UHGV virus genome: UHGV-0365817
Strand: one strand, 5' to 3'
DNA from: a virus
DNA length: 13,400 nt
Positions 5,209 through 7,538 of this stretch are shown here, piece after piece. The position numbers were made by a program, and so were the translations under genes. The notes beneath the pieces were generated by a model, which worked only from the letters and a program-made list of their open reading frames with translations, searched no databases and was not told where the DNA came from. Position 1 is the first letter of the stretch. Each line of letters begins with the position of its first letter.

Positions 5209-5418
<210 letters not shown>

Positions 5419-5433
5419 TTAGTACATGCAATT

Positions 5434-5503
5434 ATTATCACCGCTAGAGGTAAAACAGTCAACACGCACGGTGTTAGATATTTATCCCTTGCGGTGATAG
5501 ATT
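5434..5503. promoter_or_regulatory. Right operator OR1-OR2-OR3 with divergent promoters pR (towards cro) and pRM (towards cI)
   Basis: Three 17-bp operator sites: OR1 5436..5452, OR2 5460..5476, OR3 5483..5499. pR on the minus strand has -35 TTGACT (5462..5457) and -10 GATAAT (5439..5434). pRM on the plus strand has -35 TAGATA (5475..5480) and -10 TAGATT (5498..5503), with the cI ATG at 5510 (leaderless). Confidence 0.9.
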
Positions 5504-5506
5504 TAA

Positions 5507-6223
<717 letters not shown>

Positions 6224-6341
6224 CCACAATACAACCTTGTTGTCGCAAAAAGATCGCATATGCGATTGTTTATTAGAAATAGAAATCGCCATATAGGCGA
6301 ATAGTCGATCTCAGCGCATAACATAAGGAAATCAATAACAT

Positions 6342-7247
6342 ATGCCAAATTTACCGATGGGCGGATCGCAGGGTGAATTACCCTTAGTACCTACAGTAGA
6401 AGTTGTTGCTGATGGCATTCCTATGGGGGTGCTTAATGATGGAACCCCTTATCTAACTCTTTACGGTTTAGCCAAATTATGTGGCATAGATGAAGCACCT
6501 CTTCGAATGTTTACATCTAACTGGGAGACTGAAAAAAATAAGCCAAGAGGACAAAAAGTAGCTGCATACTTAGCTGAGAAAGGATTTAACAACGTTGACC
6601 GACTGTATACCCGCGTCATAAATAGCTCAAACGTTGAAACACATGCTTATCCTGACTATGTTTGTATGGCTATCCTCCGTTACTACGCTCTAGATGCCAC
6701 CAATTTTGATAGGTCAGTCGCAATAGGTAATTTTGTTCGCTTGGCTGAGTACACGCTTAAGCGAATGATTTATGAAAAGTCAAATTACAACCCAAATGCT
6801 TCAATAGATATCTCATTCGAGAACTATAGAGCAAGGATTAAGCTAAACGATCAGATACCGACAACTCATTTTGCAGTATTCAGAGAGATAGCTGACATTG
6901 CCATGAACCTGATCGGAGGAGGATTCCCAATGGATGACACCACATCTTTGGATGGAAGTGTTGGAATTCACTGGGGAAAGTATTGGACAGCTAATGGGCT
7001 ATCTGAGAAATTCGGGGAAAGGGTGCAGTACCCACATCTATTCCCCGAAAATTACAGGCAGTCAGCTGCAAATAAGCATATAACAGCTTGGATTTATCCT
7101 ATTGAGGCACTTGGCGTGTTCAGAAAATGGCTACACGATAATTACGCAATGGAAAAACTGCCAAATTACCTTGGGAACAAAAAGATTAGTAATGCCTCCG
7201 AGCTATTAGAGTCGATAAAAAAACCAGCACTCCCAAATAAGCATTGA
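6342..7247 (+). CDS. Hypothetical 301-aa protein in the rexAB slot; candidate phage-exclusion / abortive-infection protein with a possible KilA-N/Bro-N-like N-terminus
   Basis: Long ORF with an ATG at 6342 preceded by AAGGAA. It is not RexA or RexB by sequence. It looks more AT-rich by eye than the flanking cI and N genes. The N-terminal segment (...DGTPYLTLYGLAKLCGIDEAPL...) resembles the conserved core of KilA-N/Bro-N DNA-binding domains. It is followed by its own terminator. Confidence 0.8.
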   Translation: MPNLPMGGSQGELPLVPTVEVVADGIPMGVLNDGTPYLTLYGLAKLCGIDEAPLRMFTSNWETEKNKPRGQKVAAYLAEKGFNNVDRLYTRVINSSNVETHAYPDYVCMAILRYYALDATNFDRSVAIGNFVRLAEYTLKRMIYEKSNYNPNASIDISFENYRARIKLNDQIPTTHFAVFREIADIAMNLIGGGFPMDDTTSLDGSVGIHWGKYWTANGLSEKFGERVQYPHLFPENYRQSAANKHITAWIYPIEALGVFRKWLHDNYAMEKLPNYLGNKKISNASELLESIKKPALPNKH

Positions 7248-7258
7248 TCTCCACCACA

Positions 7259-7285
7259 ACCCGGCATCTGCGCCGGGTTTTCTTT
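7259..7285 (+). terminator. Rho-independent terminator after the immunity-region cargo gene
   Basis: Inverted repeat acccggc / gccgggt (7259..7265 and 7272..7278) with loop atctgc, followed by TTTTCTTT, 12 bp after the stop of ORF 6342..7247. Confidence 0.65.
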
Positions 7286-7425: not shown

Positions 7426-7495
7426 ACATACAGATAACCATCTGCGGTGATAAATTATCTCTGGCGGTGTTGACACAGATACCACTGGCGGTGAT
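7426..7495 (+). promoter_or_regulatory. Left operator OL3-OL2-OL1 and pL promoter
   Basis: OL3 aaccatctgcggtgata (7426..7442), OL2 tatctctggcggtgttg (7446..7462), OL1 taccactggcggtgata (7470..7486). pL has -35 TTGACA (7460..7465) and -10 GATACT (7483..7488), with a start site near 7495. Confidence 0.9.
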
Positions 7496-7538
7496 ACTAA
7501 GCGCATCAGCAGGACGCACTAACCACCATTGAAGGTGA

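Follow-up and report, generated by a model that had tools for sequence, protein, structure and literature searches.

Two dyads between cI and bstA in a lambda-immunity prophage are at most a minor accessory feature of a BstA-aba cassette

The cargo gene downstream of cI in this virus genome belongs to a BstA-aba cassette in a lambda-immunity prophage, and the two dyad-symmetric sites in the spacer preceding it are at most a minor accessory feature. Tuning at the RNA level is the best explanation in a weak field: two small hairpins in the co-transcribed cI-bstA leader may modestly tune the expression of bstA, a reading that we put forward tentatively. At best, the dyads would finely adjust how strongly a toxic abortive-infection protein is expressed, or supply a self-immunity element of a known kind with a few more binding sites. 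The more useful outcome, compared with the dyads themselves, is a repeat rule for the self-immunity element together with a natural swap of the 5' cassette.

Organization of the locus

The window, by which we mean the whole stretch of 13,400 nucleotides of UHGV virus genome UHGV-0365817 that was analysed, is the immunity region of a lambda-immunity prophage, and its cargo region is identical to that of E. coli CP53. The following features were assigned.

5209-5409, minus strand: cro gene
5436 and 5491: exact operator half-sites of OR
5510-6223, plus strand: cI repressor gene of the lambda-immunity type, 237 aa, with HTH_3 and Peptidase_S24; shares 95-97% identity with the 3' ends of cI from HK97, mEp234 and CL707
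6224-6341, plus strand: cI-bstA spacer or bstA leader, 118 nt, specific to the cassette variant and presumably transcribed from the cI promoters
6342-7247, plus strand: bstA abortive-infection gene, 301 aa, in the slot of lambda rexAB
7258-7279, plus strand: terminator of the immunity operon (Timm equivalent), 8-bp stem with six G-C pairs and a T tail; Timm is annotated at the same place in CL707
7444-7498: OL/PL, with exact operator half-sites at 7444 and 7488, followed by N

The original prediction had considered a BstA-type cargo with a DNA self-immunity element, and the family assignment is borne out. The 301-aa product matches BstA (PADLOC PDLC02356) with an E-value of 3.6e-106 over residues 8-286 and shares 43% identity over 298 aa with BstA of phage BTP1. 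Its homologues carry PF26567, near-identical copies in RefSeq are named 'BstA C-terminal domain-containing protein', and the gene lies directly downstream of the prophage repressor gene cI. In BstA systems, self-immunity is conferred by a DNA element, aba, and the protein carries a putative DNA-binding domain of the KilA-N-like kind (PMC8585504).

The gap that separates cI (stop at 6223) from the bstA start codon (6342) is 118 bp long, as first described. On its plus strand, between 6224 and 6341, no sigma-70 promoter-like site (-35 and -10 hexamers at a spacing of 16-18 bp) was found. In BTP1, cI and bstA form one operon with a single start site at the cI promoter, and reads cross the gap (PMC7067206). 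Given this precedent, the lack of a promoter-like site in the gap and the terminator after bstA, transcription very probably runs across the cI-bstA gap here by analogy with BTP1 and lambda, so that the dyads are very probably transcribed. Autoregulation by the cargo protein, which had been suggested as a role for the dyads, is unsupported for the same reasons, as the gap has no promoter-like site on the plus strand and cI-bstA of BTP1 is read from the cI promoter.

Sequence and geometry of the dyads

Both dyads lie at -89 to -42 relative to the bstA start codon. Their coordinates and sequences, as first reported, were confirmed by direct reading and by a script.

6253-6266: palindrome 1, ATCGCATATGCGAT, a perfect 14-bp palindrome
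6286-6300: dyad 2, TCGCC-ATATA-GGCGA, with 5-bp arms and a non-complementary centre of 5 nt

The shared half-site is real, with ATCGC starting at 6253 and at 6285, and 24 bp separate the end of dyad 2 from the Shine-Dalgarno sequence AAGGA (6325-6329). Palindrome 1 is the sole perfect dyad with arms of at least 6 bp in the 13.4-kb window. In first-order Markov sequences ca. 0.99 perfect dyads with arms of at least 7 bp are expected per window, while dinucleotide shuffles of the cI-bstA gap gave P = 0.029 for a dyad like palindrome 1. Hairpins of the dyad 2 class (5-bp arm, loop of 3-7) occur in the window at chance frequency (77 observed, 71 expected). The motif [GA][AT]TCGC has five copies in 6245-6372 against 0.36 expected, the densest cluster of the window, in a post hoc count to which each dyad contributes two copies by construction. 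Palindrome 1 is mildly unusual, and the dyads are related solely through a shared 4-6-mer. The distance between TCGC and GCGA, centre to centre, is 8 bp in palindrome 1 and 11 bp in dyad 2. With half-sites differing in spacing by 3 bp, the binding of one rigid dimeric protein to both dyads, as originally proposed, is unlikely.

A predicted self-immunity element adjoins the dyads

In BTP1, aba is a 63-bp DNA comprising 29 bp upstream of bstA and the first 34 bp of the gene (-29 to +34), which is necessary and sufficient, while the sequence further upstream can be omitted; CCCGCC direct repeats, spaced by 56 bp, form the two ends of the element, which does not function without them (PMC8585504). 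The element works as DNA, each BstA variant having its own cognate aba that, as high-copy DNA in trans, suppresses no other variant (Owen et al. 2021, PMC8585504); in that work the term 'direct repeat' applies to BTP1 alone. BstA loci were collected from genomes and viral contigs, 160 in all, and anchored on their start codons; in the 124 non-redundant ones we searched for exact direct repeats of at least 6 bases, with one copy in the leader and the other within the first 60 coding bases, at offsets of 30-114. Of these 124 loci, 53 have such a repeat at one of two offsets (56 in 32 loci, 57 in 21), against 0-3 loci for any other offset in this range. These 53 loci span gamma-, beta- and alphaproteobacteria and others, and the sequence of the repeat is lineage-specific (CCCGCCA, GATCGCCA, TTTGGTCACCA, CACCCGGCACCCCC and others). 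The rule of a repeat at 56/57 bp, experimental for BTP1 alone, holds across much of the BstA family and makes aba predictable in any locus. Most enterobacterial BstA loci have aba-type repeats built around GATC, which is missing from aba of BTP1.

In the window, the repeat flanks the start codon at an offset of 57 bp.

6307-6314, plus strand: DR1, upstream copy of the predicted aba repeat, GATCTCAG; it reads GATCGCGG in copies of the OkiPb01691 type
6364-6371, plus strand: DR2, downstream copy, GATCGCAG, in bstA codons 8-10 (G-S-Q), 57 bp from DR1
6252-6258, plus strand: heptamer GATCGCA, which forms the left arm of palindrome 1 and recurs unchanged in DR2; it precedes DR2 by 112 bp (2 x 56) and DR1 by 55 bp

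From the position of this repeat, the aba equivalent is predicted at 6306-6372. It would start 6 bp after dyad 2, so that the dyads adjoin the element and are not included. The repeat co-varies between cassettes: the OkiPb type has GATCGC/GATCGC, and the CL707 type has ATCCCTACA/ATCCCTGCA in the same alignment columns. The proposal that the dyads themselves are a self-immunity site is right in so far as a DNA self-immunity element exists at the locus, but its most probable sequence is 6306-6372, and the dyads lie outside the equivalent of -29 to +34 and form inverted repeats rather than terminal direct repeats ca. 56 bp apart.

The window and BTP1 (Owen et al. 2021, PMC8585504) have in common the protein family, the slot directly downstream of the prophage repressor gene, and a direct repeat with copies 56/57 bp apart on either side of the start codon (CCCGCCA twice in BTP1, GATCTCAG/GATCGCAG in the window). 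They differ in that BTP1 has no comparable dyads upstream of aba, and in the repeat motif, as expected for a cognate aba. Three GATC (Dam) sites, at 6252, 6307 and 6364, are spaced by 55 and 57 bp in and around the predicted element.

A possible role of the dyads in the leader RNA

If the dyads act at all, they would most likely act in the mRNA, where each could form a small G+C-rich hairpin of ca. -7 kcal/mol in an otherwise A+T-rich leader. As RNA, palindrome 1 is predicted to form a 5-6-bp stem with an AUAU loop and T-rich sequence on both sides (-6.9 kcal/mol, z -1.85), and dyad 2 a hairpin of -7.6 kcal/mol (z -3.63, plus strand). The 121-nt leader folds with -24.4 kcal/mol and z -2.47, and 5 of 200 shuffled sequences fold as well. 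Both dyad hairpins, together with a stem covering the Shine-Dalgarno sequence, are present in the centroid structure with pair probabilities of 0.6-0.8. The stem is formed by the following segments.

6235-6246, plus strand: predicted 5' arm of the long-range stem, CCUUGUUGUCGC, pairing with 6314-6328 in the minimum-energy and centroid structures (pair probabilities ca. 0.8)
6314-6329, plus strand: 3' arm in the predicted fold (6314-6328) and Shine-Dalgarno sequence AAGGA (6325-6329)

In the proposed mechanism, the hairpin of palindrome 1, followed by UUGUUUAUU, could stop some transcripts or mark or protect the 3' end of cI, and the long-range stem, with both dyad hairpins inside it, would partly cover the Shine-Dalgarno sequence of bstA. 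The net effect would be that BstA synthesis is lowered and uncoupled relative to that of CI. Any regulatory effect of the dyads is inferred. The degree to which the long-range stem occludes the Shine-Dalgarno sequence was not significant, since 9.7% of shuffled leaders do as well.

A transcriptional attenuator between cI and the cargo gene had also been suggested. In a permissive scan for terminator-like sequences, palindrome 1 passes on both strands, with six pairs, three of them G-C, and the tail GTTTATTAGA on the plus strand. Dyad 2 lacks a T tract on the plus strand and is terminator-like on the minus strand only. Palindrome 1 resembles intrinsic (Rho-independent) terminators and attenuators in its G+C-containing stem-loop followed by a T-rich tract, but differs from them in its short, weak stem (-6.9 kcal/mol) and interrupted U tract; the terminator at 7258-7279 is much stronger. 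From the terminator-like appearance of palindrome 1, a weak attenuator may be present; with a stem of six pairs, three of them G-C, it would be a weak terminator.

Across the 124 non-redundant BstA leaders, stem-loops with arms of at least 5 and loops of 3-7 are present in 58%, compared to 38% in shuffled sequences, while in a coding control both values are 35%. This enrichment favours the RNA reading, as do a covarying hairpin in a sister leader type and a hairpin of the lambda cI-rexA spacer at a similar distance from the start codon, both described below. A general structuring of BstA leaders was rejected family-wide, with a mean z of -0.65 compared to -0.62 in the coding control. The leaders of the two experimentally validated systems have no excess structure (BTP1, z +1.0; CL707/BstA-Ec type, z +0.07). 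Two features of the window also argue against an RNA role: the perfect central symmetry of palindrome 1 exceeds what an RNA hairpin needs, and the identity of its 7-mer with the aba repeat is not predicted by the RNA model. A search of 6100-6500 with the covariance models of Rfam 15 returned noise only, with E-values above 1.

The region of palindrome 1 (6249-6271) is 74% complementary over 23 nt to the bstA initiation region (6330-6352), with CATATGC in both; this is a possible alternative pairing of the start codon and is absent from the predicted minimum-energy fold. A direct repeat of ATAACATA has its copies at 6318 and 6335.

The dyads travel with the bstA cassette

Homologous sequence in other phages of lambda immunity (HK97, mEp234, HK106 and Stx phages) breaks off precisely where cI stops, at 6223, and a blastn search with 6224-6400 in 50,697 phage records gave no match. 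The original prediction had named lambda as a comparison that could speak against it if the palindromes were found there; read directly, the lambda cI-rexA spacer contains neither of them. E. coli OkiPb01691 has the window leader, both dyads included, behind a different repressor gene and a remnant of a lambda-type cI 3' end. The break in homology, the absence from lambda and the context in OkiPb01691 show that the dyads travel with the bstA cassette; on comparison of these sequences they are assigned to the cargo cassette and not to cI. Remnants of a lambda-type cI 3' end (…CAGTGGCCTGAAGAGACGTTTGGGTAA; CCAGCCAATGGCCTGATGAGATATTCGGGTGA) are found between the resident repressor gene and bstA in OkiPb01691 (L002, 2950-3000) and in BTP1 (L163, 1442-1473). 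They suggest that the cassette may move via recombination within the conserved repressor tail.

The leader was found in 33 complete E. coli genomes, in 6 IMG/VR contigs, identified by exact-pattern scans, and in 2 metagenome contigs, the latter being the dyad-bearing leaders among 79 matches of a metagenome pattern scan. Over the 197-nt query (6224-6420), all of these ca. 41 copies show an identity of at least 98.5%, and both dyads are unchanged throughout, so that neither conservation nor covariation of the dyads is informative. The copies vary at 6311, 6313, 6315 and 6323 alone, all downstream of the dyads. These sites cluster inside the upstream aba repeat or directly behind it (GATCTCAGCGC, GATCTCAGTGC, GATCGCGGCGC), and the other ca. 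105 bp of the gap have none. Elsewhere in IMG/VR, the 17-mer and the 19-mer of the dyads occur in unrelated contexts. The dyads thus belong to a single, recent variant of the bstA cassette leader.

A sister cassette was characterized in the published E. coli system. BstA-Ec of E. coli NCTC10963 corresponds to the hypothetical gene CL70704 of the lambda-immunity phage CL707 (EF120459, Degnan et al. 2007), which shares with the window the lambda-immunity order cI, bstA, Timm and OL/PL. From 6395 on, bstA of CL707 and of strain E272 (L001, L003) is 93.5% identical to the window at the DNA level, whereas the entire 5' cassette, 6224-6394, comprising the leader, the repeats and the first ca. 17 codons, differs. 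The CL707 leader has CATCTAGATG and ATCCCT(A/G)CA repeats where the window has two dyads and GATC(G/T)CAG. The primer used by Owen et al. for cloning BstA-Ec ends in GTCCGCAGCAAGAGACTTTATACG and matches the CL707-type leader; hence, a validated E. coli BstA with cognate self-immunity works without the dyads. The BstA of the window is not the published BstA-Ec, which has the CL707-type leader. The window cassette is instead a natural 5'-end swap of BstA-Ec, and offers a direct test of how the cognate BstA-aba specificity is encoded.

These data bear on the possibility that the dyads have no function at all. They would then be neutral by-products of a mosaic junction, either quasi-palindromes perfected by template switching or a local duplication of the ATCGC-rich repeat region, that are carried in a recently spread cassette. 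Recent spread explains the unchanged dyads among copies at least 98.5% identical, roughly one perfect 14-bp palindrome is expected per window by chance, the dyad 2 class is at chance level, and the same 17-mer and 19-mer recur in unrelated contexts only. The experimentally tested sister cassette of the CL707/NCTC10963 type works with a different leader, and in L091 the 10-bp palindrome of that sister cassette, CATCTAGATG, is disrupted by changes that do not compensate each other. Set against this are the position of the palindrome in a short non-coding gap at P = 0.029, the occurrence of two G+C-rich dyads with a shared motif within 50 bp of an A+T-rich leader, the z of -2.47 for the leader fold and the moderate enrichment of hairpins in BstA leaders. 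Overall, we consider a complete lack of function a serious alternative, only slightly less probable than tuning at the RNA level.

Additional sites for BstA

The dyads may alternatively be accessory DNA sites of the aba type, i.e. extra copies, in inverted pairs, of a motif recognised by BstA, which would extend aba upstream and titrate more BstA on the replicating prophage. The heptamer GATCGCA at 6252-6258 equals the coding-region repeat at 6364-6370 and is phased with it by 2 x 56 bp, in a family with a strict repeat spacing of 56/57 bp, and the five copies of [GA][AT]TCGC against 0.36 expected in 6245-6372 point in the same direction. Such a role is also consistent with the action of aba as DNA and the KilA-N-like putative DNA-binding domain of BstA (PMC8585504), and compensating copies are conceivable because DR1 is degenerate in the window (GATCTC). 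However, 63 bp suffice in BTP1 and the upstream sequence is dispensable; the repeats of aba are direct, while the dyad copies are inverted at spacings of 8 and 11 bp; and the motif statistics are all post hoc. A third phased copy of the repeat was seen in none of the 52 other repeat-positive loci, the 6-mers of the repeat are not enriched upstream of DR1 family-wide (0.029 compared to 0.052), and loci with the same DR2, GGATCGCAGGG (L096, L106, L112, L113 and L127), have no upstream ATCGC copies. We therefore regard accessory aba sites as unlikely in the window; as a family trait, extra upstream copies of the aba repeat were rejected on the 0/52 loci and the lack of 6-mer enrichment.

An extended form of this proposal seems slightly more doubtful still. 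In it, three GATC(G/T)CA copies phased by ca. 56 bp (6252, 6307 and 6364) would form an array of BstA motifs, with inverted partners of the motif giving rise to both dyads, and the cassettes of the window and BstA-Ec would represent a natural swap of aba specificity. If true, the comparison of the two would show which part of BstA reads the repeat.

An operator for CI, Cro or a host regulator, or an antisense terminator on the minus strand that protects cI, is very improbable: T-rich tracts follow both dyads on the minus strand, both pass the terminator-like scan there and a weak promoter-like site on that strand (6348 to 6320) points into them, but this site matches at 9 of 12 positions, such matches number 6 compared to 4.6 in shuffled sequences, and no antisense transcript is known at the locus. 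Lambda CI/Cro operators were rejected, as the exact half-sites TATCACCGC occur solely at 5436 and 5491 (OR) and at 7444 and 7488 (OL). Within the gap, no lambda operator half-site with up to one mismatch was found, the single match there having two mismatches.

Leaders of lambda and other BstA loci

The lambda cI-rexA spacer occupies the same slot as the window leader, where cI of the PRM/PRE operon is followed by a cargo gene for exclusion or defence. Like the window leader it holds a hairpin (L185, 37099-37226, minus strand), a 6-bp stem AGGGGA-ATTTTCAC-TCCCCT with an N8 loop, ca. 35-55 nt before the rexA start. Immediately ahead of the ribosome-binding site, CTCAG..CATAACATA is common to the lambda spacer and the window (6310-6326). 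The two differ over the dyads, where there is no homology and both palindromes are absent from lambda.

In ca. 24 enterobacterial loci, a conserved bstA leader was observed at ca. -125 to -30 from the bstA start (L097, L098, L105, L112, L114-L116, L111, L113, L150, L012, L154, L158, L014-L017, L007, L079, L124-L126, L148 and L121). It opens, directly behind the repressor stop, with a CGGCAT(T/A)TGCCG dyad (CGGCATTTGCCG), followed by ACACAGCGCG, by a hairpin whose C..AGA loop is invariant, by CAGGGAA and finally by a short hairpin in which the upstream aba repeat lies. The main hairpin shows compensatory changes in all eight of its pairs, and G-U wobbles on the plus strand, as a genuine RNA hairpin. 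Rfam gave no match for the leader region of three representatives of these loci, and we know of no description of this conserved, structured leader. Where the first dyad is missing from the conserved leader, a hexamer resembling TATAAT immediately precedes CACACAG, and this sequence suggests that bstA may have its own promoter there.

The conserved leader takes the same position as that of the window, between the repressor stop and the aba repeat. MAFFT aligns palindrome 1 over the covarying hairpin, with TTAGAAATAG of the window over CAGGGAAAT, and the dyad of L098, CGGCATATGCCG, has the same centre, GCATATGC, as palindrome 1. The window leader differs in having neither the conserved loop of the hairpin nor its flanks, and the similarity is too low for a claim of homology. 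The relation of palindrome 1 to CGGCAT(T/A)TGCCG or to the covarying hairpin is suggestive, and at this low similarity we do not claim homology to either.

Structures near the upstream aba repeat were also observed in other lineages. Alphaproteobacterial loci (L030, L038, L046, L051, L053, L058 and others) have, at ca. -60 to -5, a long stem (e.g. TCTAGCC...GGCTAGA) over the Shine-Dalgarno region, and an inner stem TTGA...TCAA whose loop presents GCACCAC or GTCACCA, the upstream copy of the aba repeat. Hairpins with arms of at least 6 bp overlap the upstream repeat in 19% of loci, compared to 5% in shuffled sequences, and the coding-region repeat shows no such excess. In Izhakiella capsodis (L012, 3555-3638), ca. 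150 bp downstream of bstA, the Rfam family sRNA-Xcc1 (RF02221) was matched with 78.6 bits, above its gathering score of 53.
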